Source: Polaromonas sp. (GTDB taxonomy: Bacteria; Pseudomonadota; Gammaproteobacteria; Burkholderiales; Burkholderiaceae_C). From it: 64,000 nucleotides of DNA. The notes beneath the pieces are model-generated. The model was given only the letters and a program-made list of their open reading frames with translations. It did not search any database and was not told the origin of the DNA. The stretch is from positions 632 to 64,631 of the forward strand of contig JANXTM010000187.1 of assembly GCA_025352405.1 (NCBI GenBank). The letters run 5' to 3'. Below, piece after piece: positions 31,643 through 60,144 of this stretch; positions within the stretch are counted from its first letter, which is position 1, and each line of letters opens with the position of its first letter. A program made the translations under genes and the position numbers.

Positions 31643-31661
31643 AATGAAATTAAATTTCATT
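31643..31661. promoter_or_regulatory. Perfect palindrome AATGAAATT-A-AATTTCATT in the glmS/Lrp divergent promoter
   Basis: 9-bp arms with a 1-nt spacer; core TGAAA-N5-TTTCA. Confidence 0.6.
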
Positions 31662-40245: not shown

Positions 40246-40635
40246 TCAACGGGGCTTGTAAGCCACCACGTCAATTTCTACCCGCGCATCGACCATCAGC
40301 CGCGCCTCTGTTGTAGAGCGCGCCGGTTTTTTGTCGCCAAAGTAGCCCATATACACCCGGTTAAAACTGCCAAAGTCGCGTGCATCCTGCAGCCAGACGG
40401 TGGTTTTGCACACATCCTCAAGCGTGCAGCCCGCCAGCGCCAGGGCGGTTGACAGGTTTTTCATGACCTGGCGGGTTTGCACCTCAATGCCGCCCTGCAC
40501 GATTTCGCCTTTTTCATCGCCTGGCACCTGGCCCGACACATAAACAAAATCACCCGCGCGCACAGCGGGCGAAAACGGGCGGGGCTGCTGGTCAGAAGCC
40601 ACCGGCGGGTTACCAAAATATTCGAGTGCAGACAT
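40246..40635 (-). CDS. RidA/YjgF family enamine-imine deaminase
   Basis: PFSPA, YVSGQ, Q.RQ.M.N, PARST (conserved Arg), VEIDVVA. Confidence 0.93.
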   Translation of the reverse strand: MSALEYFGNPPVASDQQPRPFSPAVRAGDFVYVSGQVPGDEKGEIVQGGIEVQTRQVMKNLSTALALAGCTLEDVCKTTVWLQDARDFGSFNRVYMGYFGDKKPARSTTEARLMVDARVEIDVVAYKPR

Positions 40636-40737
40636 GTGACAAAGCTCCTGAAGGGTTAAAAAGCACGCAACAACAAAACCACCAGACTGGTGTGCAAGAC
40701 CGGACGCGACACGCCAAAGTCGTGCATCTTCAAATTA

Positions 40738-40752
40738 TGAAATATATTTTCA
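40738..40752. promoter_or_regulatory. Candidate operator TGAAA-TATAT-TTTCA (site 1) in the ridA/ABC divergent promoter
   Basis: Perfect 5-bp inverted repeat with 5-bp spacer; repeated at 40822. Confidence 0.55.
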
Positions 40753-40821
40753 CGTTTCTATTTTAATTCTAGGGTTTTTACGCATTTTCGCCAAAGAAAA
40801 CGTCACATATTCTCTAAGAAT

Positions 40822-40836
40822 TGAAATTAACTTTCA
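40822..40836. promoter_or_regulatory. Candidate operator TGAAA-TTAAC-TTTCA (site 2)
   Basis: Second copy of the same 15-bp motif, just upstream of the RBS of the binding-protein gene. Confidence 0.55.
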
Positions 40837-40853
40837 CTCTTAAGGACATCAGC

Positions 40854-42413
40854 ATGCTGCAAAAATTCTCGTTAAGCCGTCGCCATGCAGTCGCTTTGGC
40901 ACTGGTCATAGGAGGTTCAGTGGCGCTTCCCATGGCCGCCCAAGGGCAGGCGCTGTCCAAGTCAGCGCTCAATCTGGCCATGATTGCCGAGCCCTCGACG
41001 CTGGACCCCATGGCCTCAACGGCTGACCTGGTGGGGACCATCATGCAGCACGTGTATGAGCCGCTCTATACCTTTGACGCCAACTGGAAGATGATCCCCA
41101 TGCTGGCCGAAAGCCTGCCCAAAGTGTCGGCTGACGGCAAAAAATACAGCATTACCCTGCGCAAGGGCGTGATGCTGCACAACGGCCGCGAACTCAACGC
41201 TGACGACGTGGTTGCCAGCCTCAAGCGCTGGATGGAGGTGTCACCGCGCGGCAAGGCGCTGTCCAAAGAGGTAGTTGATCTATCAGCCAGTGGTGCCAGC
41301 GGCATTGAAATCACGCTCAAAGCACCGTACGCACCTTTGCTGCCGCAACTGGCGCTGCCTTCGGGCATGGCCGCCATCATGGCCAAGGAGTCGATTGCCA
41401 CACCGCTCAAGGAGTTTGTCGGCACCGGCCCCTACAAATTTAAGGAGCGCCGCCCTGACCAGTATGTGCTGTTAACCCGCTTTGACCAATATTCGGCCCG
41501 CAAAGAAGCGGCCAGCGGTTATGGCGGCAAAAAGGTGGCTATTGCTGATGAGCTGCGTTTTATTCCGGTGCCCAACGCCAACACGCGTGTTGAAGGCTCG
41601 CTGGCTGGCCAGTACCACTTTGCCGACTTGCTGCCCACCGAGGCCTTGAACCGGCTAGAAAAAGCGACAGGCAAGACCGTGCCCATCCTCACGCCTTCGT
41701 TTGGTTTTCCGTACTTTGTGTTCAATACCAAAGAAGGTGTGATGGCTTCGCTGCCTGTTCGCAAGGCGGTGCAGACCAGTTTTGGTGAGGGTGAAATGAT
41801 GGCCGCCGGCTTTGGCGACACGCGCTTTTTTACCGCCGAGGCGAATCATTTCCCCAAAGGCACACCGTTTTATTCAGCCGCAGGTTCGGCTTTTTACAAC
41901 GAGCGTGATGCCAACAAGGCCAAGGGGCAATCGGCAACGGCTGGCTACAAAGGTGAAACCATACGCATCCTGACCAGCCGCCAGTACGACTTTCACTACA
42001 ACATGGCGCTGATCATGGCCGAGCAGCTCAAACGCGCCGGCTTCAAGGCGGAGCTCAATGTAGTGGACTGGGCCACGCTGGTACAGCGCCGCAATGACTC
42101 TAAATTGTGGGACATCTACATCACGCATTCAGGCCAGTTCCCTGAACCCATGCTGTCGCCGCCACAACTGGGCGAGGGCGCTCCGGGCTGGTGGTCGTCA
42201 CCCGCCAAACAGGCCACATTGGCTGCACTGAACCAGGAAACCAACCCGGTCAAACGCGGCGCGCTGTGGGGTGCAGTACAGCAGGTGGTGTACGACGAAG
42301 TGCCCTACATCAATGTTGGAAAGTTCAACAGTCTGTCGGCCAAATCACCAGCGCTGCAGGGCTACACGCCGTCCACCTGGCCTTTCTTCTGGAACACAGG
42401 CCTCAAGAATTGA
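40854..42413 (+). CDS. ABC transporter solute-binding protein, family 5 (peptide/nickel type)
   Basis: TLDP, YEPLY, LRKGV..HNG, GTGPYK; signal peptide; AAGGA RBS. Confidence 0.92.
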   Translation: MLQKFSLSRRHAVALALVIGGSVALPMAAQGQALSKSALNLAMIAEPSTLDPMASTADLVGTIMQHVYEPLYTFDANWKMIPMLAESLPKVSADGKKYSITLRKGVMLHNGRELNADDVVASLKRWMEVSPRGKALSKEVVDLSASGASGIEITLKAPYAPLLPQLALPSGMAAIMAKESIATPLKEFVGTGPYKFKERRPDQYVLLTRFDQYSARKEAASGYGGKKVAIADELRFIPVPNANTRVEGSLAGQYHFADLLPTEALNRLEKATGKTVPILTPSFGFPYFVFNTKEGVMASLPVRKAVQTSFGEGEMMAAGFGDTRFFTAEANHFPKGTPFYSAAGSAFYNERDANKAKGQSATAGYKGETIRILTSRQYDFHYNMALIMAEQLKRAGFKAELNVVDWATLVQRRNDSKLWDIYITHSGQFPEPMLSPPQLGEGAPGWWSSPAKQATLAALNQETNPVKRGALWGAVQQVVYDEVPYINVGKFNSLSAKSPALQGYTPSTWPFFWNTGLKN

Positions 42414-42492
42414 CCCCCACGCTCCCCGCTTCGCGTGGTTCGCTGCGCCCCGAGGGGACCGCCCGCCTGCGGCCTGGCAAAACCGGTTCCGC
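42414..42492 (+). repeat. Second repeat family, copy B (uninterrupted), between binding protein and permease genes
   Basis: CCCCCACGCTCCCCGCTTCGCGTGGTTCGCTGCGCCCCGAGGGGACC...GCCTGCGGCCTGGCAAAACCGGTTCCGCG, immediately after the TGA. Confidence 0.8.
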
Positions 42493-42589
42493 GATTTGAC
42501 TGGGTTTTGCTTCGCTTCGCGTCAGACGCAGTAACGGTGGACTCTCAAATGAACAAGAAAAATTTTCAGCCAGTGAATAGATCAATGTC

Positions 42590-43531
42590 ATGACCCGCTT
42601 CCTGTTGTCACGCCTCATGGGCATGCTTGTTGTCATGGCGCTGGTGGCAGTGATTGTGTTTGTGCTGACGCGCGCCGCCTCGGGCGACCCGGTCACGGTG
42701 CTGCTGGGCGATCAGGCCACGGCAGAAGACATCGCCAGCGCACAAAAAATCTATGGCCTGGACAAACCGCTGCCAGTGCAGTTTGGCTATTGGCTCAAGG
42801 AGTTGTCGCAGGGCAACCTGGGCCAGTCCATCTTCTTGCAGCGGCCAGTCACCCAGGCATTGTGGGAGCGGGCTGAGCCCACAACTTTGCTGGCGCTGAT
42901 GGCAGTGTTTATTGCCGCCGCCATCGGTGTGCCTTGCGGCATTGTGTCGGCAGTGTTTCGCGGCAAGCTGATTGACCAGTTGCTGACGGGCTTTGCCATG
43001 CTGGGCGCGAGCATTCCAAGCTTCTGGTTCGGGCTGGTACTGATGCAGATTTTTGCAGTGTCGCTGGGCTGGTTTCCGGTGTCGGGTTATGGCGACCCAG
43101 GCGCGACATTGTCAGAACGCTTTCACTACCTGGTGTTGCCGTCTGTGGTGCTGGGCGTGCTCAATTCAGCGCTGATCATTCGCTTCACGCGCGCATCCAT
43201 GCTCGATGTGTTGGGCGAAGACTATGTACGCACCGCGCGTGCCAAGGGCTTAAGCGAACAAGTGGTGGTGCTCAAGCACGCGCTGCGCAATGCGCTGGTA
43301 CCCATCGTCACCGTGCTGGGCCTGACAGTCGCGCTGATGATTGGCGGTGCGGTGGTGACAGAAACCGTTTTTGGCCTGCCTGGCGTTGGCAATCTGGTGG
43401 TCAGCGCCGTGCTGCGGCGTGACTATCCGGTGATTCAGGGCGCGTTACTGGTGATCGCCATGATTTATGTCGTCATCAATTTTTTGACCGATCTGCTGTA
43501 CATGCTGGTTGACCCGCGAGTGAAATATTAA
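42590..43531 (+). CDS. ABC permease, DppB/OppB type
   Basis: GDP, YGLDKP, EDYVRTARAKG, RDYPVIQG. Confidence 0.95.
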   Translation: MTRFLLSRLMGMLVVMALVAVIVFVLTRAASGDPVTVLLGDQATAEDIASAQKIYGLDKPLPVQFGYWLKELSQGNLGQSIFLQRPVTQALWERAEPTTLLALMAVFIAAAIGVPCGIVSAVFRGKLIDQLLTGFAMLGASIPSFWFGLVLMQIFAVSLGWFPVSGYGDPGATLSERFHYLVLPSVVLGVLNSALIIRFTRASMLDVLGEDYVRTARAKGLSEQVVVLKHALRNALVPIVTVLGLTVALMIGGAVVTETVFGLPGVGNLVVSAVLRRDYPVIQGALLVIAMIYVVINFLTDLLYMLVDPRVKY

Positions 43532-43547
43532 TGGCAACAACCAGACC

Positions 43548-44387
43548 ATGAAAATCCCGCTTGTAATAAAAAAACTTTTTCGCCGCCGAATCGTGCTGGC
43601 TGCAGCTGTCTGCCTGCTGGCCGTGCTGGTTATGGCGCTGCTGGCTAACATCATCACCGGTTATGACCCCAATGAAACCGCCGTCAGCCAGCGCTTGGCT
43701 GTGCCCAGTGCCAGCCACCTGATGGGCACGGACGAGCTGGGCCGCGACCTGTTTGCGCGCATTGCCTTTGGCGGGCGCTACTCGCTCACGATTGCTGCAC
43801 TGACCGCCGTGGGAGCGATTGTGCTGGGCATGCTGTTCGGCCTGGTAGCCGGCTTTTTCAGGCGCCTGGATGCACCCATCAGCCGGCTGGTCGATGCCAT
43901 GATGTCGTTCCCCGACATTCTGCTGGCGATAGCGCTGGTGGCAATTCTCGGGCCGTCGATGCTCAACGTGGTGTTTGCGCTGGTGCTGGTGTACACGCCG
44001 CGCGTGGCGCGTGTGGTGCGCGCCTCGACCCTGGTGGTACGTGAGCTGCTGTTTGTGGAAGCGGCGCGTGCCGTCGGTGTATCAACTTCGCGCATTTTGT
44101 GGCGGCACATTCTGCCCAACCTGATGTCACCCATTCTGGTGCAGGCCTCGTTTATTTTTGCCTATGCGATTCTGGCCGAAGCTGCGCTGTCTTTTCTTGG
44201 TGTGGGGGTGCCGCCTGAAATTCCGACCTGGGGCACTATGGTCGCTGGCAGCCAGCAGTACGCGCATGACGCGCTGTGGATTGTGCTGTTCCCCGGCCTG
44301 GCCATTATCGTGACGGCGCTGTCTCTGCAACTGCTGGGCGACGGTGTGCGTGACCTGCTCGACCCACGGCTTAAAAAATCGATGTGA
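43548..44387 (+). CDS. ABC permease, DppC/OppC type
   Basis: GTDELGRD, EAARAVG, EAALSFLG, GDGVRD. Confidence 0.95.
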   Translation: MKIPLVIKKLFRRRIVLAAAVCLLAVLVMALLANIITGYDPNETAVSQRLAVPSASHLMGTDELGRDLFARIAFGGRYSLTIAALTAVGAIVLGMLFGLVAGFFRRLDAPISRLVDAMMSFPDILLAIALVAILGPSMLNVVFALVLVYTPRVARVVRASTLVVRELLFVEAARAVGVSTSRILWRHILPNLMSPILVQASFIFAYAILAEAALSFLGVGVPPEIPTWGTMVAGSQQYAHDALWIVLFPGLAIIVTALSLQLLGDGVRDLLDPRLKKSM

Positions 44388-45466
44388 ATGAAAGTCAGTT
44401 CATGAGTTCACCCCAAATAGCTGCGCGGCTTGACGTGCGCCACCTCAGTACTTTTTTCAATACCGACGATGGGTTGATCCGCTCTGTCGCCGATGTCAGC
44501 TTCAGCATCCAGCCCGGCAAAACGACCGCACTGGTGGGTGAGTCTGGCTCCGGCAAATCAGTCACCAGCCTCACCCTGATGCGTTTGCTGGCGCGTACCG
44601 ATTCAACTCAGGTCAGCGGCCAGGCCCTGTTTACCAACCGTGCCGGTCAAACGCTGGACTTGCTGGCGCTGCCCGAGCCCGACATGCGGCGCATTCGCGG
44701 CAATGAAATCGCCATGATTTTTCAGGAACCCATGACTAGCCTGAACCCGGTGTTTACTGTTGGTGAGCAGATTGCCGAGTCGGTACGCCTGCATAGGGGG
44801 CTGGACCGAACGGCCGCGCTGGCCCACGCCCAGCGCATGCTAGAACTGGTCGAGATTCCGGCGGCTGCACAGCGCCTGCACGAGTACCCGCACCAGCTGT
44901 CAGGCGGCATGCGTCAGCGCGTGATGATCGCGCTGGCCATGGCCTGCAACCCCACACTGCTGATTGCCGACGAGCCCACCACCGCGCTGGACGTGACGAT
45001 TCAAGCGCAGATTCTTGAGCTCATGCGCCGTTTGCAAACAGAGACCGGCATGAGCATTCTGTTTATCACCCACAACCTCGGTGTGGTGGCGCATCACGCA
45101 GACGATGTGGCTGTGATGTATGCCGGACGCATTGTTGAATCAGCCCCGGTGCGCGAGCTGTTTGCGACCCCGCGCCATCCCTATACCCAGGGCCTGCTGG
45201 CCTGCCTGCCCGCGCAGCAGCGCAAGCGCGAACTTGCCAGCGGCCAGACCGGTGCCAAACGCAGGCTTTATGCGATTCGCGGCCAGGTGTCGAGCCCGCT
45301 GTCGCCACCGCCGGGCTGCGCCTTCGAGCCGCGCTGCGACCTCGCCATACCGGCCTGTCGCGACGCGATACCGGAATTGCTGCCTGCTGGACCCACACGC
45401 TCGGCGCGCTGCATCCGAGTGGCGGATACAGCCGTGACCAGCGTTGAAATGGCGGAGGCCGCATGA
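44384..45466 (+). CDS. ABC ATPase, DppD/OppD type
   Basis: [32 protein letters not shown]-terminal C.F.PRC. Confidence 0.95.
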
Positions 45467-46434
45467 GCGCACCCCTGATTGAGGTTAAAAACCTCAAACG
45501 TTATTTCGGCGATGGCGCCAAACCTGTCCGCGCAGTGGACGACGTGTCCTTCAGTATCCAGCCCGGCGAGACACTGGGCCTGGTGGGGGAATCCGGTTCG
45601 GGCAAAAGCACCATTGGTCGCACCTTGCTGCGCCTGGTTGAGGCGACCGATGGTCAGGTGTTGTACCGCGGGGAGGACCTGGGAACGGCATCCAGCAGCC
45701 GCATGCGTTCATTGCGCAGCAAGCTGCAGATGATCTTTCAGGACCCGTACGCCAGCTTGAACCCCAAGATGCGTGTGCGTGACACCCTCGGCGAGGCGCT
45801 GGAAGTGCATGGGCTACATAAAGGCAAGGCCGCACGCGACGAACGCATTACCGAACTGCTGGCGCTGGTCGGCCTGCGCGCCGAACACGCCAGCCGCTAC
45901 CCGCATGAATTTTCGGGTGGTCAGCGCCAGCGCATCGGTGTGGCGCGTGCGCTCGCCGTCGAGCCTGAATTTATCGTCGCCGACGAGCCGCTATCGGCAC
46001 TGGATGTGTCGATTCAGGCACAGGTCGTCAACCTGCTGTGCGACCTGCGCGACCAGTTGTCACTGACCATGCTGTTTATCTCGCATGACCTCGACGTGGT
46101 TGAATATTTATGCGACCGCGTGGTGGTGCTTTACCTCGGCCGCGTGATGGAGGTAGCGCCCACTGCGCTGTTGTTTGAAGCGCCCCTGCATCCCTACACC
46201 CAGGCCTTGCTGGCGGCCTCACCCAAACCGGACCCGGAGAACAAGCGGGAATATATCGCACTGAAAGGCGACATTCCCAGCCCGGTCAACCCGCCGTCGG
46301 GTTGTGTCTTTCGTACCCGTTGCCCGTATGCGATCGAGGCTTGTTCGACCCGGCGGCCAGAATTGCGCGACATGGGCCAGGGCCGTTTCAAGGCCTGCAT
46401 CCGCGACGACATTGCATCGGCAGAAGCCGTCTGA
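45463..46434 (+). CDS. ABC ATPase, DppF/OppF type
   Basis: [36 protein letters not shown]. Confidence 0.95.
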
Positions 46435-46467
46435 AACCCATCTGAAAACCGAAAACAATTGCCCTCC

Positions 46468-47760
46468 ATGACTACCTTGAAAGACCTCCTCGATCCCCAG
46501 CTTGACCGCAGCTATAAGGGCTTTCCGCACACCAGCGGGCCGCTGCGCCGCTCGGAGATCGCGGCGCAACACTGGAACGTTCTCAAGGGGGATATGCCGC
46601 TGCCGCTGGCTGTCGTCAAGCAAAACGCGCTGCAACACAACCTGGGCTGGATGCAACGCTTTGCCACCAGCCAGAACATCGACATGGCACCGCATGGCAA
46701 GACCACCATGTCGCCGCAACTCCTTAAACGCCAGCTCGATGAAGGTGCGTGGGGCCTGACCTTTGCCAATGTGGCGCAAATGCGTGCGGGCATTACCGCC
46801 GGTGCCCAGCGCCTAATGATCGCCAACCAGGTTGTCAATGCCATCGACCTAGCAGGCATAAAGGGCATGCTGCGCGAGTATCCCGGTTTGCGGATTGTTT
46901 TTCTGGTGGACTCACTGGCGCAATTGGCGCTAATCGAGGCCTGGATGCTGGGCCACACCGCCGCCATCATGTCGCCCTTTGAGGTGTTGATGGAGATCGG
47001 CGTCATGGGCGCGCGCACAGGTGTGCGCAACGACGCCGACGCGTTGGCACTGGCCGCAGCCCTGCATGCCAGTCCAGCCTGTCAGCTGGTGGGAATCGAA
47101 ACCTATGAAGGTCAAGGCGCCACCGGCGACTCCGCAGCCGACAAGGCCTATGCCGACACCCTGATGCAGCGCGTTTGCGGCATCGCATTGGCGTGTGACC
47201 AGCAAGGCCTGTTTGATGGCGATGAAATCCTCATGACGGCTGGTGGCTCGGGCATCTTCGACCTGGTCAGCGGCTGGCTGAAGCCCAAACTGTCCCGCCC
47301 GGTGCGTGGCCTGCTTCGCTCAGGCTGCTACGTCACGCACGACCACGGCAACTACAAGCGACTGGTCGGCTCTGTCAATGCGCGCCTGCATGACAGCGAT
47401 GGCCTGAAACCTGCCATTGAGGTCTGGGCCACGGTGCAATCCTGCCCCGAACCAGGTCTGGCCATCCTCGCTGTCGGACGGCGTGACCTCTCCTATGACC
47501 TGGAGCTGCCGATCCCGTTGTCGTCAGTCACTGCGCCCGGTGCCGCGCCGGTGGCCGCGCCTGCTGACTGGAAAATCAGCGCCCTCAACGACCAGCACGC
47601 CTATCTGCGCGGCACAGGCCCTGAACATGCCGCACTGGCTGTAGGCGACCTGGTGGCTCTCGGCATTTCGCACCCTTGTACTACTTTTGACAAATGGCGC
47701 TGGATGCCGGTTGTGGACGACAACTACACCGTGTGCGATGCCCTTGTGACCTGTTTTTAA
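46468..47760 (+). CDS. Fold-type III PLP enzyme, D-serine dehydratase/amino(sugar)-acid deaminase-like
   Basis: PLP-Lys in APHGKTTMSPQL, RSGCYV.HD, C-terminal Zn-site-like SHPCTTFDKW. Confidence 0.85.
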   Translation: MTTLKDLLDPQLDRSYKGFPHTSGPLRRSEIAAQHWNVLKGDMPLPLAVVKQNALQHNLGWMQRFATSQNIDMAPHGKTTMSPQLLKRQLDEGAWGLTFANVAQMRAGITAGAQRLMIANQVVNAIDLAGIKGMLREYPGLRIVFLVDSLAQLALIEAWMLGHTAAIMSPFEVLMEIGVMGARTGVRNDADALALAAALHASPACQLVGIETYEGQGATGDSAADKAYADTLMQRVCGIALACDQQGLFDGDEILMTAGGSGIFDLVSGWLKPKLSRPVRGLLRSGCYVTHDHGNYKRLVGSVNARLHDSDGLKPAIEVWATVQSCPEPGLAILAVGRRDLSYDLELPIPLSSVTAPGAAPVAAPADWKISALNDQHAYLRGTGPEHAALAVGDLVALGISHPCTTFDKWRWMPVVDDNYTVCDALVTCF

Positions 47761-47767
47761 TCGTCTC

Positions 47768-48679
47768 ATGACCTCAAAAGTTCTTGCCAAAATTTCCGAC
47801 GCCATTACCAGCGCGCCGACTTCCAGGCGTGGCGTGCTGGCGCTTATCCTGCAAGACCCGCAGCGGGTGCTTGACGAAAGTTTTGAACAACTCGCGCAGC
47901 GCGCAGGCAGCTCGGTGCCCACGGTTATGCGTACCTGCCGTGACCTAGGTTACTCTGGTCTGCGTGAATTCAAGATGGCGCTGGCGCAGGAAATGGCTAT
48001 CAGCGGCTCACCCCTGCATCGCCGGGTACAGCTGCATGACAGCACTGAAGATGTGATCGCCAAAGTGATACGGGGTGCTGCCACTGCCGTCAATGGCGTG
48101 CAGGGCCAGCTGGGTGTTTCGGCGGTAGAAGCCGCAGCTGATGCCATCGTGCGCGCCAGCCGTGTGGACTGCTACAGCGTGGGCGTGACGTCCAGCTTTA
48201 TGGCGTCTGACATGCAGGCCAGGCTGTTTCGACTCGGGCTGGTGTCCAACGCTTATCTTGACATTCATTTGCAACTGGTATCGGCCGCAACCATAGGCAA
48301 CAGTGGTGTGGTGTTTGCCATCTCGCACGTGGGCGGCATGCCTTCGCTTATTGAAGCGGTAGACGTGGCGCGCTCGCAAGGGGCCACTGTGATTGCGCTG
48401 ACCCAGCAGGGCACTGCACTAGCCGACCACGCAGACATCGTGCTGGGTATTCATGTGCCCGAAGACCCGGTCATGCACGTTGGCACCGAGGCTTATCTGG
48501 TGCACCTGACCGTGATTGAAATCGTCACCGTGCTGGTGGCGCAGCGCCTCGGTGATCTGGCTGTCAAGCGCTTGGGCGGCGTGCGCGAGGTGCTCAGCAC
48601 CCGTGGTGTGGACATGCGGCACTACCCCAAGCTTGATTGGGATACGGCGCAGGCCATCAATGAAAGTAAACTCAAATGA
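47768..48679 (+). CDS. MurR/RpiR family regulator (HTH + SIS)
   Basis: LAQRAGSSVPTVMRTCRDLGYSG..EFK HTH; SIS domain. Confidence 0.9.
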   Translation: MTSKVLAKISDAITSAPTSRRGVLALILQDPQRVLDESFEQLAQRAGSSVPTVMRTCRDLGYSGLREFKMALAQEMAISGSPLHRRVQLHDSTEDVIAKVIRGAATAVNGVQGQLGVSAVEAAADAIVRASRVDCYSVGVTSSFMASDMQARLFRLGLVSNAYLDIHLQLVSAATIGNSGVVFAISHVGGMPSLIEAVDVARSQGATVIALTQQGTALADHADIVLGIHVPEDPVMHVGTEAYLVHLTVIEIVTVLVAQRLGDLAVKRLGGVREVLSTRGVDMRHYPKLDWDTAQAINESKLK

Positions 48680-50139
48680 CGCGTGCGACGCTGCTTGAAA
48701 ACGGGCTGGTGATTGATGGCACAGGCGCAGACGGCTGGCTCGGCGATGTACTGCTGGCCGATGGCCTGATTGCTGCGATTGGTCAAAACCTGCGCAACCA
48801 GCTACCAGCCAGCATTGGGCCGGACGACATCACCGTTGTGGACTGTACCGGCCTGGCCATCACGCCGGGCTTTATTGATGTGCATACCCATGACGACGCA
48901 ATCGTGCTCAGACACCCCGACATGCTGCCCAAAGTGTCGCAGGGCATTACCACCGTTATTGCCGGCAACTGCGGCATATCGCTGCTGCCATTGGTAGTTG
49001 AAAAGCCCGAACCACCGCTTAATTTGCTGGGCAACGATTCATTCCAGTTTGACACTGTTGAGGGATATGAAACCGCACTTGCCGAAGCCCGACCCGCCGT
49101 GAATGTGGCGGTACTGATTGGCCACACCACCTTGCGTTTTGCCTGCATGGGCGATTTGAGCCGTGCGGCCAGCGCAGACGAACTCGATGCTATGTGCGCG
49201 CTGCTTGCGCAGTGTATGCAGGGCGGTGCTGCGGGCATGTCGTCAGGTCTTTTTTACGAACCTGCGTTTGCAGCTCCGGCTGAAGAAGTTGTTCGCCTGG
49301 CAAAAGTTGTAGCCCGCTATGGCGGCGTCTACAGCACCCATTTGCGCGACGAAATGGCCAGCATTATTGAGGCGCTGCATGAAGCCGGTGAGACCGCTTT
49401 CAGCGCAGGCGTACCGCTGATCGTGTCGCATCACAAATGCGCCGGGACGGCCAATTGGGGCCGCACACTTGAAACCCTGCCGGTGATCGAGGCAATGGCG
49501 CGTCGCCAGCCCGTGGCGATGGATGTTTACCCCTACGTAGCGGGCTCGACCGTGCTCCGTGAAGACCTGGTTGACGGCGTGATTGACGTGCTGGTCAGCT
49601 GGTCTACCCCGCACCCAGAAATGACGGGCCGTACTCTGGTGTCGATTGCCGCTGAATGGGGCATTGACCAAAAGGCCGCGTGCCGCCGCCTGCAACCCGG
49701 CGGCGCGTGCTACTTCCAGATGCACGAGGATGACGTCAAACGTGTCATCGCGCACCCTCTGAGCATGATTGGCTCTGACGGCCTGCCGCACGACCAGCAC
49801 CCGCACCCCCGGTTGTGGGGGGCTTTTCCGCGAGTTCTGGCGCGCTACTGGCGCGAGCAAAAACTTTTTTCACTTGAAACGGCCGTCTACAAGATGACGG
49901 GCTTGTCGGCACGCAATTTCCGGCTGCACCAGCGCGGTCAACTGCAGGTAGGCTGGCATGCCGATGTGGTGGTGCTGGACCCGGCCCGGGTACGTGATGT
50001 CGCGAGTTATGAAAACCCGATTGCACTGTCGGTTGGTATTGAGAAAGTTTTTGTTAACGGTGCGCTTGCCTATGTGGGCGACGGCCTGATCACCGCACGT
50101 GCGGGGCGGCTGCTCAAGCGACACGCGCCGCAGCCCTGA
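48676..50139 (+). CDS. N-acyl-D-amino-acid deacylase (D-aminoacylase family)
   Basis: PGFIDVHTHDD, GNCG, YSTHLRDE, SHHK, GSDG, HPR..GAFPR. Confidence 0.92.
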   Translation: MTRATLLENGLVIDGTGADGWLGDVLLADGLIAAIGQNLRNQLPASIGPDDITVVDCTGLAITPGFIDVHTHDDAIVLRHPDMLPKVSQGITTVIAGNCGISLLPLVVEKPEPPLNLLGNDSFQFDTVEGYETALAEARPAVNVAVLIGHTTLRFACMGDLSRAASADELDAMCALLAQCMQGGAAGMSSGLFYEPAFAAPAEEVVRLAKVVARYGGVYSTHLRDEMASIIEALHEAGETAFSAGVPLIVSHHKCAGTANWGRTLETLPVIEAMARRQPVAMDVYPYVAGSTVLREDLVDGVIDVLVSWSTPHPEMTGRTLVSIAAEWGIDQKAACRRLQPGGACYFQMHEDDVKRVIAHPLSMIGSDGLPHDQHPHPRLWGAFPRVLARYWREQKLFSLETAVYKMTGLSARNFRLHQRGQLQVGWHADVVVLDPARVRDVASYENPIALSVGIEKVFVNGALAYVGDGLITARAGRLLKRHAPQP

Positions 50140-50289: not shown

Positions 50290-51717
50290 TCAGTCAGCGA
50301 CGCGTTCACACTTGCTTTTACTGCCCAGAATATTGCAGCGCAAAACAGCCCCGCCTGCAATGTTGTACTCCGTCAACAGCCATCGGGCCGACGCCTCCGG
50401 ACCAATCCTGTCAAGTGTCGCAAAGCCATAGTCAGACCTCGCGGCGTAGTCTTCGACGACTGCACCCGGATAGGGCTGCATATCTGGCGGCAGACTCAAA
50501 GGAATTTTCCCCTCATTCGCTGATCCGGAATTACCCAAAACCAGTGTGGCCGGATGGGCTGTTTTAAAACTAATGGCCTCGAAAAAATGGATGTGACCGT
50601 GCAGCGTGACATTTACATTGTCAGGAAAGAGTCGTTTGGGATGCAGGGTTTCGAACACCGACTGCAAACCCGCGTTACCGCCTGGTCTAGCCGGCTTCGA
50701 CTTGGCCGCTGGGGCGAAGGCCAGCAGCGGGTGGTGGCTCATGAAAAAGCTGTGCGGTTTGAGGGCTGTCAACTGGTCTACTGCCAGCATTTGCGTCTTG
50801 TATTTGCCGTACGCGTGGTCTTTGAAAGAAAACGGCTTGCCACTGGTTTTTGACGAATCAAAAACAACGAACTGGGTATCCGGGCCAATCGCAACAGAAT
50901 ACGGGTCAGAGTAATCTGCATCTTGATCGAATTTGGGGTCGTTGCACGAACGGGCTTCACTCCAGGGCTGCCGGTCCATGAAGCGGAACCAGCCTTGTCC
51001 GGCGCGAGCGCAAGATTCGTGATTGCCACGCACAAATACCCAGGGGGCGGCCGTAAGCAAAGGCCGAGCCGGATTGAAAAAGTCAGCCTTCCAAGCATCG
51101 TAACCATAGCCCCACGGGCTGCCAACGCAGCCGGCCTCCCCTTGAGGGCATGGGCTTTCCCGGTAATGCATGTCGCCGATATGAATCACCAAATCCGGCT
51201 TCAGAGCGGCGGCACTCTGCGCGATTTTGGCAAATGGCCACTGCTCCACATCGTTGCAGAGTTGAAACGCATTTTCTGAAGCTTTCATGCGGCACCCGGT
51301 ATCCGCAATGATGACGATGCGGCGTATGTCAGCCTTGGGTGCCGGTACTTCGCGACCTGCAACACGTGCCTTGAGCACACCAGCGGGCCACGTGGCCTCA
51401 CAGGTCAACACATCAAACAGTGCCTCTTTTTTGTCCACCTGAGCACCAACGGATCTCACCGCCATCGCGCCTGGTGCAGCCCGAACAGACATGGCTTGAG
51501 CGGGGTGGGCGTCCCACGCAATATCCGGACAGCTTGCCGAACGGGTTAATGCCCTGACGATAGCGCGTTGACCTTCAGCCTGTACTGTGTAGACACTTTC
51601 AATCTCGCCTGCAGGAGCGGCGGCGACAAACAAAGCCGGTACGCTGGAACAGGCGGCCAGGGCCAACGTTGTCAGCAGGGCAGTCGTTGAAAACCAAAGA
51701 CGTGGACTTTTAAACAT
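50290..51717 (-). CDS. Calcineurin-like metallophosphoesterase lipoprotein
   Basis: Lipobox LAAC; DTG, GDMHY, GNHE, HHP, GHIH motifs. Confidence 0.85.
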   Translation of the reverse strand: MFKSPRLWFSTTALLTTLALAACSSVPALFVAAAPAGEIESVYTVQAEGQRAIVRALTRSASCPDIAWDAHPAQAMSVRAAPGAMAVRSVGAQVDKKEALFDVLTCEATWPAGVLKARVAGREVPAPKADIRRIVIIADTGCRMKASENAFQLCNDVEQWPFAKIAQSAAALKPDLVIHIGDMHYRESPCPQGEAGCVGSPWGYGYDAWKADFFNPARPLLTAAPWVFVRGNHESCARAGQGWFRFMDRQPWSEARSCNDPKFDQDADYSDPYSVAIGPDTQFVVFDSSKTSGKPFSFKDHAYGKYKTQMLAVDQLTALKPHSFFMSHHPLLAFAPAAKSKPARPGGNAGLQSVFETLHPKRLFPDNVNVTLHGHIHFFEAISFKTAHPATLVLGNSGSANEGKIPLSLPPDMQPYPGAVVEDYAARSDYGFATLDRIGPEASARWLLTEYNIAGGAVLRCNILGSKSKCERVAD

Positions 51718-51764
51718 GAGATTGTTTGTGCTTGATAGCGTTATTGATAATGATTCTAGAGCGC

Positions 51765-52487
51765 TCAAAAGCAGGCAACCCAGATTTGGTAGCCGCCTTC
51801 TTTCCCCTGTAATGCGGCTGGCGGGGAGGGGAATACCGCAGCCTGAACGGCTTTGACGGCTGCCCTGTCCACTGCACCTAATCCGCTGCTCACGATAACG
51901 CGTATCGTGCTTGCAAGGCCATCATGCAAGGCGAACTCGATGCGTGTTCGCCCTTTAAAGTTCAGCGCTGAAGCCACAGCCGGTAACTCAAACGCTGCTT
52001 GTACGGCAGCCGCGAGCTTGGCGTTGTAAGCCGGAGCAGGATCAACGATTGCCAGCGGGGGTGTGGCAGCAGAAACCGGTTGATTTGCCAACACCGCCGA
52101 TGAAGACGGGTTTGACTGGCTTGCAACTGCAGCCACCACGACAGTTTCGGACGGTGCAACGACAGCAGGTGCTTGTGGTGACGCCATGGCCGGTTGAACT
52201 ACCCGCGGAACAGGCAAAACAGCTTGCAAGGCAGGCAAATGCGGCTCGGGCTTTGGGGGTGCCGCTTGCTGGCGTATTTCGGGTTCTGGCGGTGCGTCGG
52301 GTTTCAGCAAATCAATGCTGATTGGCACCACGGGCTGGACAACTGGGGCGGTGGCTTTGGTCATCCATATCAGGGCACAGAGCAACGCCACCAGTTCTAT
52401 TAAAAGTGCCAGACCAAAGGCTTGCCAGAGACGCGAGCTGTGCACCCTGAGCCTGGGTGCAGGCAAGGCTTCCGAAGCGCTTCTCAC
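51765..52487 (-). CDS. tonB: TonB-family energy transducer
   Basis: Single N-terminal TM, Pro/Ala-rich linker, C-terminal SSG..AVDRAA..AV...FP.PP. Confidence 0.85.
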   Translation of the reverse strand: MRSASEALPAPRLRVHSSRLWQAFGLALLIELVALLCALIWMTKATAPVVQPVVPISIDLLKPDAPPEPEIRQQAAPPKPEPHLPALQAVLPVPRVVQPAMASPQAPAVVAPSETVVVAAVASQSNPSSSAVLANQPVSAATPPLAIVDPAPAYNAKLAAAVQAAFELPAVASALNFKGRTRIEFALHDGLASTIRVIVSSGLGAVDRAAVKAVQAAVFPSPPAALQGKEGGYQIWVACF

Positions 52488-52885
52488 CGCACAGCTTGAC
52501 GCGCAGCCAACCCAATTTGCGTCGCGCCGCCCTGGCGCACGGCATCTATCGCGGTCATGACTTGCTGCAACGAAGCATCATCACCGCCGGCTATGGTGAC
52601 AGCCAGCCGGGCCGGGTCGCTAGAACGCACGAGTGCCGTGATTTGATCGGTACCAGTTACCTTCCCTTCGACAAACAGCTCACCGCCAGATCTAATTTCA
52701 AGCAACAACTTTGGCGACGGAATAATTTGTGCAGTCGAGCTGACGGGCAGCTTGGACACATGGCCCGTGGTGGGGATCATGCGCAGCGTCAGCATGGCAA
52801 AGAAAACCAGCAGAAAGAGCATGATGTCGATCATGGGGATGATCTCTATGCGGGCCTTGCGCACTTCAAAATAACGCATGCTCAA
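52484..52885 (-). CDS. exbD: Biopolymer transport protein
   Basis: IIPMIDIMLFLLVFF. Confidence 0.92.
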   Translation of the reverse strand: MSMRYFEVRKARIEIIPMIDIMLFLLVFFAMLTLRMIPTTGHVSKLPVSSTAQIIPSPKLLLEIRSGGELFVEGKVTGTDQITALVRSSDPARLAVTIAGGDDASLQQVMTAIDAVRQGGATQIGLAARQAVR

Positions 52886-53562
52886 GCCGCCAATGCGCTG
52901 GTCACCAGACTCGTCGCGCGCTGCAACGGCATCGCAGCCATCGGAACGGCGGCAGACCGGCGGTTGAGCAGCATGACTTTCATGGTTTCCATTTGATGCA
53001 CGATCAAACGCACCTTGGTGCTCAAACCGTTGAAAAATACCAATCCAATCATGGCAATCAACAAGCCCGACGCGGTGGCTATCAGCGCCTCGGCTATTCC
53101 GCCGGTCACTTGACCGGCTCCATTTTGTACATCACCCAACACCGAAAACGCAGTAAACATACCCACAATAGTGCCGAATAAACCTAACAGCGGTGCCAGC
53201 GTAATTACCGTGTCGAGTACCCACAGTGACCGGTCAAGGCCAGGAACCTCACGCATGACGGCCTCTTCCAGATGCCCCGCGCAAACCTCGCGGGCTGAGT
53301 CGCCCGGCTCAATCAGCGCGGCATTAAGCAATTGAATATGCGGCAGCTTGCTGTATTTTCCCATGCTGGCCGACATGGCCTGGCTTCGCAATGCTGTGTT
53401 GGCCTGCAGCAGGCCCATCAGTTCTTCGCCGCCCTGCTGCATTTTTGACAAGTACACGGTACGTTCAATGATCACGGTCAACGCCACGAGCATCAGCAGA
53501 CACATCAGGTAAAGCGTACCGCCCGATGCGTTGGCCAACTCAATCAACTTGGAAATGCTCAT
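52882..53562 (-). CDS. exbB: MotA/TolQ/ExbB proton channel
   Basis: APLLGLFGTIVGM, GIAEALIATA.GL. Confidence 0.92.
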   Translation of the reverse strand: MSISKLIELANASGGTLYLMCLLMLVALTVIIERTVYLSKMQQGGEELMGLLQANTALRSQAMSASMGKYSKLPHIQLLNAALIEPGDSAREVCAGHLEEAVMREVPGLDRSLWVLDTVITLAPLLGLFGTIVGMFTAFSVLGDVQNGAGQVTGGIAEALIATASGLLIAMIGLVFFNGLSTKVRLIVHQMETMKVMLLNRRSAAVPMAAMPLQRATSLVTSALAA

Positions 53563-53564
53563 GA

Positions 53565-55904
53565 TCAAAAATCCGCCTTGAGGGATACCTGCAAGCTGCG
53601 GGGCGCCTGATAAATATAGGTATCCAGTGGCAAGGACGCGCCTGTGCTAATGGCCGTGACCTTCAGGCTGTTGGCCAGATTGAAGACGTTCAACTGTAGT
53701 TTGAGTGACTTTGAAAATGAGCTGACATTTTTAAACGTATACGCCACGCCCAGATCAAGGTTGCCGTACGCAGGGGTTTTGTAATAGTCATAAAAAGCCT
53801 GACCATTGATGGGTGCTTTGGTGGCGTCATAGTCTTTCTGGCGGACAGCACCTGTGCGCTTGTAGATCAATGATGCGGCCCAGGGCCCTTCGCTGAACAA
53901 GCCGCCCAATGCAGCCGTCATCTCAGGTGCGCTGGCAATTTGTTGCCCGGTGTCGGTGGCTTTGGCGCTGTTGAGTGAACCATTGACATAGGCCGAAAAC
54001 CCACCGCCAATCACGTAAGCGGCTTGCGCCTCAACGCCCTGGTAAGTCGCGCCACCGATATTGATGAATGCTGCTGCCGCACCCGGCAAGCCATTGGACA
54101 CCAGCTTGTTGGTGAAGTTGATGCGGTAAATATCTGCATCCCATGTCATGCGGTCGCTCTTGCCGACAATACCTGCCTGGTAGTTAGTCGATTTTTGCGG
54201 TACCGAGCTGTTTTGGGTCGGGTTGGCGATGTAGAAAGTGTTCAGGTCGGGTATCTGAAAGCCCTTGGCGTACTGCGCGTAAACAGCCAACTCGGAATTG
54301 ATCTGCTGGTTCACCGTCAAAAAGGGCAAGGTCGCCTTGTAGTCAACCGATGCCCTGGCGTTGAGCTGGCGAGTGGCTTGTTGAACCAGCGCATCCACCG
54401 AACGCGTGATGCTGACGTACTTCAGGCCAGGGGTGATCGTGGTGCCTACAAAAGGCGTCCATTCAAACTCGGCAAACGGTTGCACGGTTTTGACTTTCGA
54501 TTGCTGGTCAAACAACACGCTGTCTATTGGCCGGTTTCCGCCACTCAGAAAGCTGCTGTTGGCCGCTGTTCCTTCAACACGGTTGTAGGCGCGGGTTGTC
54601 AGGTCCAAGTCGTATTGGTGGCGGTCTGATGATGAGGTTTCGTACCAGACGCCTGCCCGGGCCAGGCCCGCGTCAAGCTGTTTTGTTGCCTTGAAGATAT
54701 TGCCGTAAACGCGGTATTTATTCTGCTTTTCAATGCCTGGAATATTGCCATTGAGCGGTGCCAGCGTAGCCCCCTTCAGAACCCATGTTCCCGCTGGTGC
54801 AGTGCGACGCGGGTCGGGCCCGGTGGGCAAGGTGCCGGTCCAGGTAGGGTCGGTTGAGGAGACGGTCTGGTTGTTGTAGGCGTAGGTGTACAACTGGTTG
54901 TCAATGTTCCAGCCGGCACCCAAGTCACTGCGCAGGCGGATGTAACTGAAGTCCGTGTCTTTCACCGTGCCGTTGTAGCCCTGGTAATTCATGCTCTTTG
55001 GGTCATTGTTGAGCTGAAAGTTTTTACCAAACGCGGCGATCTGCGTCAGCGTTGCGCCTTTGTTGCTGTCGGGCTGGGCGTAGGTGGTTTTGTTCACAGA
55101 CGTAAAAACAGTCAGCAGCGAAGCGTCGCCCACCGGTCGCTCAAACTTGAGCGTGTAATTGTTGCTTTTGATCGGGCTGTAGCTGAGGTAGCCGTCAGAC
55201 GTTTCACGCTGATAGTTGAGTTGCAGCGTGGCGTCACCAAAGTTGGGCAAGCGACCGCTCTCATAAGAAACCCCGTACAAACGGGTATTCCAGGTGCCCA
55301 GTGATGTGAATACGCTGGTGGTTTGTTCTTGCGACGGTTTTTTGGAAAACAGATTAATCGAGCCGCCAAACGTGGCATAACCGATATCGCTCGCCTTGCC
55401 CGGGCCGCGCTCGACCACCGCGCCACCAATGACAGAGGCGGGGAAAAACGAAGTTGAGTGATGCGACGGATTATTGGTATCGCCCCAAGGTATGCCGTCG
55501 AAGGTGATATTGTACTGGTCGTCCTTGAAGCCGCGCAGCGTGGTCTTGGTTTCGCTCAAGCCAGGGCCGTTGGCCGAGTCGCCAGACAAGCTCGGAGCGA
55601 TGTTCACGATGCGGCTGTATTCGGCGGTCGGTGCAACGGACAGATCAATAAATTCCCGCGTGATGATGGACTGCGGCTGCGTGGCCTGCAAGCTGGCCTG
55701 CGTAGGGGCTATGGCGGATGCCGTGCCCTTGGCGGCCTCGTCGGGTCGGTAGGCGCCTGCTGCAGTGCTGGCGCCTATGGTGCCTAGATCAACTGCGGCA
55801 TTGCCGGTCTGAGCCAGTGCAATAGGGCCGGCGGAAATAGACAGCATGGCCAACGACACCAGACGTGCAAGGGTTTTAGGCTGGAGGGCGCGCGAGTTTT
55901 TCAT
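53565..55904 (-). CDS. TonB-dependent outer-membrane receptor
   Basis: Signal peptide, plug-domain motifs (LRGF, DGIP, VVERGPG), beta-barrel pattern, terminal Phe (SLKADF). Confidence 0.93.
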   Translation of the reverse strand: MKNSRALQPKTLARLVSLAMLSISAGPIALAQTGNAAVDLGTIGASTAAGAYRPDEAAKGTASAIAPTQASLQATQPQSIITREFIDLSVAPTAEYSRIVNIAPSLSGDSANGPGLSETKTTLRGFKDDQYNITFDGIPWGDTNNPSHHSTSFFPASVIGGAVVERGPGKASDIGYATFGGSINLFSKKPSQEQTTSVFTSLGTWNTRLYGVSYESGRLPNFGDATLQLNYQRETSDGYLSYSPIKSNNYTLKFERPVGDASLLTVFTSVNKTTYAQPDSNKGATLTQIAAFGKNFQLNNDPKSMNYQGYNGTVKDTDFSYIRLRSDLGAGWNIDNQLYTYAYNNQTVSSTDPTWTGTLPTGPDPRRTAPAGTWVLKGATLAPLNGNIPGIEKQNKYRVYGNIFKATKQLDAGLARAGVWYETSSSDRHQYDLDLTTRAYNRVEGTAANSSFLSGGNRPIDSVLFDQQSKVKTVQPFAEFEWTPFVGTTITPGLKYVSITRSVDALVQQATRQLNARASVDYKATLPFLTVNQQINSELAVYAQYAKGFQIPDLNTFYIANPTQNSSVPQKSTNYQAGIVGKSDRMTWDADIYRINFTNKLVSNGLPGAAAAFINIGGATYQGVEAQAAYVIGGGFSAYVNGSLNSAKATDTGQQIASAPEMTAALGGLFSEGPWAASLIYKRTGAVRQKDYDATKAPINGQAFYDYYKTPAYGNLDLGVAYTFKNVSSFSKSLKLQLNVFNLANSLKVTAISTGASLPLDTYIYQAPRSLQVSLKADF

Positions 55905-55999
55905 GGTGCAAGTTTTTTTGGTTAAGAAAACGGTTGCCTTATCTTTCATCCCAAAAAGGCCATGAAACATTTGGCAAGGTTGTAGCGTAATTACTTTTA

Positions 56000-56017
56000 A
56001 TGACAATTTTGTGGCAT
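56000..56017 (-). promoter_or_regulatory. Pho-box-like direct repeat facing the TonB-dependent receptor
   Basis: Minus strand ATGCCAC-AAAA-TTGTCAT (7-4-7, 11-bp period) versus consensus CTGTCAT-AWAW-CTGTMAY. Confidence 0.5.
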
Positions 56018-56043
56018 GTCACAGGAACTATTTGAGGATTAAG

Positions 56044-56061
56044 TTTTCACGCGCCTGTCAC
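56044..56061 (+). promoter_or_regulatory. Pho-box-like direct repeat facing the alkaline-phosphatase-family gene
   Basis: TTTTCAC-GCGC-CTGTCAC, followed by a TATGGT -10-like hexamer. Confidence 0.4.
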
Positions 56062-56109
56062 ATACACGGGCTATGGTTTACGGCTTTACCTGAAAATCCA
56101 AGGACACAA

Positions 56110-59571: not shown

Positions 59572-60144
59572 ATGCCTACTCCTTGCGCAACCCCCGCCCC
59601 AGCAGCTTCTGCGGCCGCCTTGCATGGCAGGGGGCCAGGCATTCAGGTGGTGGTGATGGGCGTTTCAGGTTGCGGAAAGTCCGCTGTCGCCCAGCGGATA
59701 GCGCTGCAACTGGCTCTGCCTCTGATCGAGGGCGATGACTTTCACCCGGCCAGCAACATCGCCAAAATGCAGCAAGGCAACGCCCTGACAGACGATGACC
59801 GCGCCCAATGGCTGCGCACCCTGGGCACCGAATTGACGCGTCACCCCGACGGCGCGGTGCTGACCTGCTCGGCCCTGAAAACCACCTACAGAAGCACCTT
59901 GCGCGCCGCTGCACCCCGGCTGCGTTTTGTGCATCTGGCCATTACGCAGGCCGAGTCCCTGCGGCGTGTGGGCAGCAGGCCCAGTCACTTTTACCCACCC
60001 AGTCTGGTGGCAAGCCAGTTTGAGGCTCTGCAGGACCCTGCGGGTGAATACGGCGTCTTGAGCCTGGCAGCCGATGCGCCACTCGATGAACTGGCGCAAA
60101 AGGCTGTGGCCTGGTTGATTGCTTTTAAATTCAACAATGCGTAA
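59572..60144 (+). CDS. gntK: Gluconokinase
   Basis: MGVSGCGKS, EGDDFHP, LTDDDR, CSALK, SQFEALQ. Confidence 0.92.
   Translation: MPTPCATPAPAASAAALHGRGPGIQVVVMGVSGCGKSAVAQRIALQLALPLIEGDDFHPASNIAKMQQGNALTDDDRAQWLRTLGTELTRHPDGAVLTCSALKTTYRSTLRAAAPRLRFVHLAITQAESLRRVGSRPSHFYPPSLVASQFEALQDPAGEYGVLSLAADAPLDELAQKAVAWLIAFKFNNA

Follow-up and report, generated by a model that had tools for sequence, protein, structure and literature searches.

What compound is taken up and degraded through the nine genes at positions 40246-50139 of a 64,000-nucleotide stretch of Polaromonas sp. DNA (assembly GCA_025352405.1, contig JANXTM010000187.1; the whole stretch is termed the window)? The genes code for an ATP-binding cassette (ABC) importer with a family-5 substrate-binding protein (SBP), a pyridoxal phosphate (PLP) enzyme, an RpiR-type regulator, a D-aminoacylase-like deacylase and a RidA protein. 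The explanation favoured here, with a probability of roughly 0.68, is that the cluster serves the breakdown of an N-acetylated 2-amino-2-deoxy-aldonic acid, and that this acid is most probably N-acetyl-D-glucosaminate (GlcNAc1A). The cluster most likely represents a variant, not described before, of the published ong pathway. The original prediction for this DNA had proposed that an N-acyl amino-sugar acid, for example N-acetylglucosaminate, is imported, deacylated and then deaminated; this proposal is now supported by the homologous chemistry of the ong enzymes (PMC9537276, PMC12017989) and by the gene contexts of the deacylase clade.

GlcNAc1A is a product of oxidative attack on chitin or N-acetylglucosamine by lytic polysaccharide monooxygenases (LPMO) or oxidases. 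Using knock-outs and assays, Jiang et al. (2022) characterized the operon ongC-ongR-ongB-ongD of Pseudoalteromonas prydzensis ACAM 620, whose four products are a deaminase that uses PLP, a repressor of the RpiR family, a deacetylase and a RidA protein, in that order (PMC9537276). The ong cluster also carries the SSS transporter OngIT, kdgK and the GH20 gene ongA. GlcNAc1A, to which the action of LPMO on chitin finally leads, is converted to D-glucosaminate, then to 2-keto-3-deoxygluconate (KDG) and finally to KDG-6-phosphate (PMC9537276). OngR is a demonstrated repressor; OngD is essential in vivo, its role being left undefined in the paper, and the reported ong carriers are essentially restricted to Gammaproteobacteria (PMC9537276). 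Wang et al. (2025) solved the structure of OngB with substrate (9kb1) and named the residues that separate OngB from D-aminoacylases (PMC12017989). A canonical ong cluster, L012, whose OngB scores 581 bits against PpOngB, served as the reference in this work. A literature search found no paper describing the Dpp-type form of the cluster or the deacylase clade of the window.

Gene contexts of related clusters

Related clusters were fetched through the binding protein, and the 80 named loci are the best of at least 554 SBP loci in species-representative genomes. These 80 loci belong to Polaromonas, Rhodoferax/Albidiferax, Variovorax, Acidovorax, Aquincola, Rhizobacter, Rubrivivax and others. Cultured carriers include Variovorax paradoxus, Polaromonas jejuensis and P. 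aquatica (loci L077, L088 and L137). None of the named loci with sufficient contig departs from the nine-gene order, which was seen in about 60 named genomes, among them Polaromonas, Variovorax and Rhodoferax. As a marker of the full cluster, the SBP is present in 40 of the 401 sampled genomes of the bacterial family, a count that includes the unpublished genome G545, on which nothing else depends, and in 26 of 201 genera.

Several relatives whose deacylases belong to the clade of the window enzyme are accompanied by kinases for 2-keto-3-deoxy sugar acids. On a distant metagenomic contig (L002), the same Dpp-type operon is followed by ridA and a PfkB kinase gene, 10 and 4 nt apart. The best model for this kinase is that of KDG/2-keto-3-deoxygalactonate (KDGal) kinase, and the SBP of L002 is 64% identical to that of the window, a value above the identity of any L002 enzyme. 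The PfkB gene overlaps the stop codon of the deacylase gene in L057, and comes after the divergent ridA in L039. Among the 80 named loci, two add a PfkB gene and two have DgoK-DgoA beside ridA.

Two further loci join the same enzymes to sugar-type ABC importers. In L044 (G446:C4:61800-81700), the order DgoA-DgoK-deacylase-RpiR-PLP-MalK-type ATPase is divergent from SBP1-permease-permease-RidA, a layout suggestive of a pathway variant for N-acetylgalactosaminate. L048 (G737:C29:63500-83400), from a Comamonadaceae-type bacterium, combines KdgK (340 bits), a CUT1 sugar ABC importer, GH20, RidA, the PLP enzyme, the deacylase and a TonB receptor; no RpiR gene was seen in this cluster, and an LPMO_10 gene is present elsewhere in the genome. 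The L048 deacylase carries the pocket loop of the window enzyme, with one Val replaced by Ala, and nests inside the Dpp-type clade. L048 is thus an ong-like cluster of a third design.

These contexts bear on a second reading, in which the cluster salvages N-acetyl-D-Ser and N-acetyl-D-Thr or L-Xaa-D-Ser/Thr dipeptides, and the dehydratase and RidA yield pyruvate or 2-oxobutyrate plus ammonia, with no need for a kinase. N-acyl-D-hydroxyamino acids were the other option of the original prediction. Members of the D-aminoacylase family reportedly hydrolyse L-Xaa-D-Xaa dipeptides, and most of the loci are kinase-free. However, KDG/KDGal kinases are joined to, or adjoin, the same operon in at least three arrangements, and GH20, a TonB receptor and KdgK accompany the same deacylase type. 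Since 2-keto-3-deoxy sugar-acid kinases have been recruited in several independent arrangements, one of them a full oxidized-chitin set, the contexts do not sit easily with a role confined to D-serine or peptides. The regulator, too, is of the sugar type (RpiR/SIS), as in ong.

The deacylase

The window deacylase matches the solved structures of AfDam, the D-aminoacylase (EC 3.5.1.81) of Alcaligenes faecalis DA1 (1m7j; 1.5e-141, 475 bits, the highest score), and PpOngB (9kb1; 8.8e-117), and also that of an N-acyl-D-glutamate deacylase. It is 47% identical to the OngB of L012. The metal-binding and catalytic residues C99, H222, H252 and D368 are present. Similarly, the clamp for the acetamido and carboxylate groups is kept (Y194, K254, Y285, S291, L370 and R379), with Asn at position 116 where OngB has Leu. 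A256 is the only substrate-shaping residue of OngB that the window enzyme has in common.

The pocket itself is nearly invariant among relatives. The loop of residues 290-301 reads GSTVLREDLVDG in 60 of 62 named loci and has Ile for Val in the remaining two; F193-Y194 and K254-C-A256 are found in all 62, and Q348 in 61. Overall these 62 deacylases are only 60-83% identical, despite the near-invariant pocket. Gln348 was considered as a diagnostic residue and set aside, because it is also found in P0123 and P0129 (about 48% identity), which sit in unrelated gene contexts.

In F193, G290, T292 and loop length, the window deacylase is the same as AfDam, as would be expected of a D-amino-acid salvage enzyme. 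Against such a role, the pocket is polar (A256, Q348, R295/E296/D297/D300), whereas that of AfDam is hydrophobic (F191/M254/L298/M346); only the Phe of that set is retained in the window enzyme, the others being replaced by Ala, Asp and Gln.

In the phylogenetic tree, the window-type deacylases form a clade of their own (SH-aLRT, the Shimodaira-Hasegawa-like approximate likelihood ratio test, 92), apart from the OngB clade and from L047, a close AfDam homologue (598 bits to AfDam) that served as its proxy. L047 comes from the same bacterial family and, in the free tree, is not part of the window-type clade. A sister relation to OngB was obtained in a quick tree (SH-aLRT 86), yet the approximately unbiased (AU) test does not reject an AfDam-like grouping, and the sister relation was not adopted.

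Operators and regulator

The region between the divergent ridA and SBP genes is 218 bp long and holds two exact TGAAA-N5-TTTCA palindromes, which agree with the two shared operators proposed earlier. Paired sites with at most one mismatch are found in this intergenic region in all 77 related loci with enough upstream DNA; in 64 of these the two sites stand 83-85 bp apart, and GAAA...TTCA is invariant. By this measure of sequence conservation, the operator pair is a strong phylogenetic footprint. The RpiR regulator is tentatively assigned to the two sites because its gene always travels with them. Operator 1 is located directly downstream of the -10 hexamer of a candidate ridA promoter. Two palindromes eight helical turns apart, in the constant company of an RpiR gene, suggest that one oligomeric RpiR repressor may hold both promoters.

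The regulator has the features of the RpiR/MurR family, namely an N-terminal HTH_6 domain and a SIS effector domain, together with the conserved palindrome pair. Its best NCBIfam model is HexR (166 bits, under the model cut-off), and it is 29% identical to the OngR of L012.

The exact palindrome is found 11 times in the whole 3.78-Mb genome, where about 1.3 copies are expected from the composition. A third copy in the window (31645-31659) precedes glmS by 79 nt; the DNA that separates glmS from an Lrp-like gene is very rich in A and T there. This site is exact in none of five relatives, and degenerate sites were seen in one relative only; glmS was left out of the regulon because the palindrome is not conserved and stands in very AT-rich DNA. 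The copy probably serves another regulator or arose by chance. Elsewhere in the genome, the copy at C205:36017 falls within a coding sequence, and an AT-rich copy, TGAAATTTTATTTCA, stands at C190:16447 (L010:7448), about 77 nt upstream of a 332-aa open reading frame without a solved relative.

Dehydratase, RidA and importer

The PLP enzyme matches the 'D-serine deaminase' of PDB entry 3gwq (1.1e-77). It contains the lysine motif PHGKT and the zinc motif SHPC, in addition to a C-terminal D-ser_dehydrat domain, and shares 33% of its residues with the OngC of L012 and 41% with the corresponding enzyme of L002. Orthologues were found in 95 of the 401 sampled genomes of the bacterial family, whereas a class-level sample gave only 5 of 401. 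Copies from clusters and copies that stand alone are intermingled in the PLP tree, and the latter (L026, L036, L038, L040, L041, L059 and L062) often have ffh (SRP54) on one side and a miaB-like radical-SAM gene on the other; the dehydratase is therefore an older resident, which the cluster joined or left repeatedly. A few stand-alone copies adjoin PfkB, DgoK or DgoA. As a clue to function the stand-alone contexts were discarded, the neighbours being mostly ffh and miaB-like genes, which are uninformative. In L026, the PLP gene occupies the chromosomal position that it has in the window, beside the gene for 5-formyl-tetrahydrofolate (5-formyl-THF) cyclo-ligase, and the rest of the cluster is absent.

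RidA scores 105.0 bits against TIGR00004, for which the model cut-off is 106.25. The catalytic Arg is present in the motif KKPARS, and the protein is 47% identical to the RidA (OngD) of L012.

Across related clusters the SBP is 64-91% identical, the lowest value being that of the distant L002. Its best solved relative is 8vdx, whose title states no ligand; the second is AgaA (6hlx; 2.2e-30), an opine binder of Agrobacterium. Literature searches on the 8vdx ligand and on AgaA gave no usable paper. The best solved relative with an identified ligand is thus an opine binder and not a peptide binder, which argues against the salvage of D-amino acids or their dipeptides. A second SBP copy, about 70% identical, is present elsewhere in two genomes of the same genus (G543:C1:350686-352164 and G690:C1:38364-39887); only one copy was seen in the genome of the window.

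Kinases and chitin enzymes in the host genome

The host genome is a metagenome-assembled genome of 3.78 Mb in 346 contigs, 96.8% complete. No match to LPMO_10 (PF03067) or GH20 (PF00728) was found in it, and it holds one GH18-like gene. The organism would therefore scavenge sugar acid freed by others.

The PfkB matches in the host are HldE and a ribokinase/nucleoside-kinase-like gene, and KdgK-like kinases from related clusters, used as queries, had no match in this genome. The genome encodes edd-eda and DgoK-DgoA, with DgoK at C80:11678-12586. DgoK and DgoA are part of the block SDR-DgoA-DgoK-IlvD-like dehydratase-GhrB (C80:10202-15386, L009), which is syntenic with a region of the complete congener genome G543 (C1:2682000-2699000, L148).

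Alternative substrates

A number of observations weigh against GlcNAc1A as the substrate. PpOngB gives the window deacylase a lower score than the Alcaligenes D-aminoacylase does, and the set of residues for the sugar hydroxyls in OngB is replaced (A193 by F, S290 by G, S292 by T, Q298 by L, with D300 in the AfDam register, and G348 by Q). In the AU test, the tree that groups window-type with AfDam-like deacylases is 9.7 log-likelihood units better (p 0.64). The importer belongs to the peptide/opine class, and orthologues of the PLP gene are often found singly, surrounded by housekeeping genes. A KdgK-type kinase was not found in the cluster or in the host assembly; in the congener G543, a KdgK-like PfkB gene is inserted between DgoK and the IlvD-like dehydratase gene, and it is absent there in the host, where the contig is unbroken. 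Both LPMO and GH20 are missing from 13 of the 16 Dpp-type carriers that were examined. In addition, OngC deaminates D-Ser and D-Thr as well (PMC9537276).

Many of these points count in favour of the salvage of N-acetylated D-amino acids or their dipeptides: an ABC system of the Dpp/Opp class, a deacylase whose best match is a true D-aminoacylase and which the AU test cannot separate from that group, a host without KdgK, and the activity of OngC on D-Ser and D-Thr. Similarly, KleDacyl, an OngB-like enzyme from Klebsiella, hydrolyses N-acetyl-D-Met in vitro (PMC12149444). Set against the recurrent sugar-acid kinases, the polar pocket and the sugar-type regulator, this explanation is considered unlikely.

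The same chemistry could also act on N-acetyl-D-galactosaminate (GalNAc1A), the C4 epimer, or on both epimers, and the product would be 2-keto-3-deoxygalactonate for DgoK and DgoA. The host keeps DgoK-DgoA beside the IlvD-type dehydratase, without the intervening kinase of the congener, a state that this reading would account for. DgoK-DgoA also adjoin the Dpp-type cluster in 2 of the 80 named loci, as well as directly adjoining deacylase-RpiR-PLP in L044. DgoK is present in 10 of 16 carrier genomes, and the pocket, unlike that of OngB, could reflect another sugar configuration. However, 6 of the 16 carriers are without DgoK, the PfkB kinases within the operons have KDG kinases as their best models, and L048, with GH20, KdgK and an LPMO-bearing genome, points to chitin-derived GlcNAc1A. 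No abundant natural source of GalNAc1A was identified. A GalNAc1A pathway is accordingly regarded as improbable, and GlcNAc1A is retained as the preferred substrate.

Organization of the locus

All nine genes are intact, and their families were assigned by Pfam and NCBIfam searches (Table 1). The original prediction described the ABC genes (SBP family 5), the fold-type III PLP gene, the RpiR gene and the D-aminoacylase gene as contiguous or coupled, with ridA divergent; the families and coordinates were confirmed. The genes of the operon are tightly packed, with 4-nt overlaps at PermC/AtpD, AtpD/AtpF and RpiR/Amd and gaps of 16, 24 and 7 nt elsewhere. The exception is the 176 nt between the SBP gene and PermB, which contain no significantly stable fold (z 0.29). 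A terminator scan gave no more sites than shuffled controls. The SBP most probably starts at the ATG at 40854, giving a protein of 519 aa (MLQKFSLSRRHAV...) after the ribosome-binding site AAGGA at 40842. The TTG at 40821 is disfavoured because the reading from it overlaps operator 2.

Table 1. Genes and regulatory features of the cluster and its divergent promoter region (window positions)
Feature	Position	Strand	Evidence
ridA, OngD-like RidA imine/enamine deaminase	40246-40635	-	PF01042, 1.3e-31
Operator 1, TGAAATATATTTTCA	40738-40752		exact TGAAA-N5-TTTCA palindrome
Candidate ridA sigma-70-like promoter, TTGGCG-17-TAGAAT	40766-40794	-	consensus scan only; putative function
Operator 2, TGAAATTAACTTTCA	40822-40836		exact palindrome; 84 bp from operator 1, 18 nt before SBP start codon
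Periplasmic SBP, family 5 (peptide/nickel/opine type), Tat-like SRRHAV signal	40854-42413	+	PF00496, 5.9e-64
ABC permease, DppB/OppB type (PermB)	42590-43531	+	PF00528 + PF19300
ABC permease, DppC/OppC type (PermC)	43548-44387	+	PF00528 + OppC_N
ABC ATPase, DppD/OppD type (AtpD)	44384-45466	+	PF00005 + oligo_HPY
ABC ATPase, DppF/OppF type (AtpF)	45463-46434	+	PF00005 + oligo_HPY
Fold-type III PLP enzyme, DSD1/OngC-like dehydratase (putative D-glucosaminate dehydratase)	46459-47760	+	PF14031 + PF01168
RpiR/MurR-family regulator, OngR-like, probable repressor	47768-48679	+	HTH_6 + SIS
Metal-dependent N-acyl-D-amino-acid-type deacylase (Amd), putative N-acetyl-amino-sugar-acid deacetylase	48676-50139	+	Amidohydro_3

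The genes on the left flank (lytic transglycosylase and 5-formyl-THF cyclo-ligase) and on the right flank (phosphoesterases, a TonB receptor and ExbBD) are unrelated to the cluster, and its limits are therefore taken as correct. The right-hand genes, at 50290-57729, code for a calcineurin-like phosphoesterase, a 240-aa protein without known family, ExbD, ExbB, a TonB-dependent receptor and a divergent type I phosphodiesterase. This separate unit looks like a phosphorus-scavenging locus.

The original prediction was also right that the operon contains no KDG kinase, as none was found, and that gntK lies about 9.4 kb further on. This gene (59572-60144) encodes a GntK-type gluconokinase and has no evident link to the cluster; it is irrelevant to the pathway because gluconokinase is not a KDG kinase.

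Proposed pathway and significance

The following route may be proposed for the cluster. The exported family-5 SBP would capture the sugar acid, and the DppBCDF-type ABC system would import it, as the protein families predict. The deacylase, with its Cys/His/His-bound metal, would then strip the acetate to give D-glucosaminate, with K254, Y285, S291 and R379 predicted to hold the alpha-carboxylate as shown for OngB. Elimination of the 3-hydroxyl by the PLP/zinc fold-type III dehydratase would follow, as shown for OngC, and RidA would hydrolyse the resulting enamine or imine to 2-keto-3-deoxygluconate and ammonia. The 2-keto-3-deoxy acid would enter an Entner-Doudoroff or De Ley-Doudoroff type route, in the host possibly via DgoK-DgoA. 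RpiR, by analogy with the repressor OngR, would repress both divergent promoters through the candidate operators until a pathway metabolite relieves repression.

A wider proposal is also made, tentatively and at somewhat less than even odds. The window-type deacylases may be a second family of N-acetyl-amino-sugar-acid deacetylases that took shape independently, marked by the conserved pocket loop plus Gln348. They would be coupled to a peptide/opine-class ABC importer in Comamonadaceae-type bacteria that lack LPMO, a chitinase system and GH20 and live off the oxidized sugar acids of degraders. In this host the pathway would run without KdgK, via DgoK-DgoA or another step, or the ligand may be another amino-sugar acid.

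So far, what becomes of LPMO-oxidized chitin products has been established in marine Gammaproteobacteria alone. If the GlcNAc1A assignment is true, a widespread cluster of soil and freshwater Betaproteobacteria uses the same sugar acids by way of another importer and a differently built deacetylase, and most carriers are cross-feeders rather than chitin degraders. Hundreds of genes labelled 'D-aminoacylase', 'D-serine deaminase' and 'peptide ABC transporter' would gain a function, and the RpiR regulator with its strictly conserved dual operator would offer a clean system for study. What is surprising is the combination of a separate invariant pocket, a peptide-class importer, the conserved dual operator, the spread among carriers poor in LPMO and GH20 (16 checked) and the missing kinase in the host.

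Comparison with known systems

The window cluster differs from ong in several respects. Import is assigned to a five-gene Dpp-type ABC system, and no SSF gene is present, whereas ong has the SSS transporter OngIT. The ridA gene is divergent, whereas it is the last gene of the operon in ong. Also, kdgK, the GH20 gene ongA and the TonB receptor are absent from the window cluster. The host belongs to a betaproteobacterial (Comamonadaceae-type) freshwater or soil lineage, unlike the ong hosts. Compared with PpOngB, the substrate-shaping set of the deacylase differs except for A256, and the window clade has its own invariant loop. AfDam, on the other hand, is found in quite different gene contexts.

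The importers of the AgaA type share with the window the family-5 SBP, DppBC-type permeases and two oligo_HPY ATPases, although the similarity is only distant. With ong, the four core families are common; the order PLP-RpiR-deacylase (C-R-B), found in L012 as well, is the same, with RidA attached. The chemistry proposed for the window is likewise ong-like, with deacetylation followed by PLP-dependent deamination to a 2-keto-3-deoxy acid and no prior phosphorylation. On sequence comparison, the window system departs from ong in the transporter, the kinase, GH20, LPMO and the OngB specificity features, and shares with it a core related by descent.

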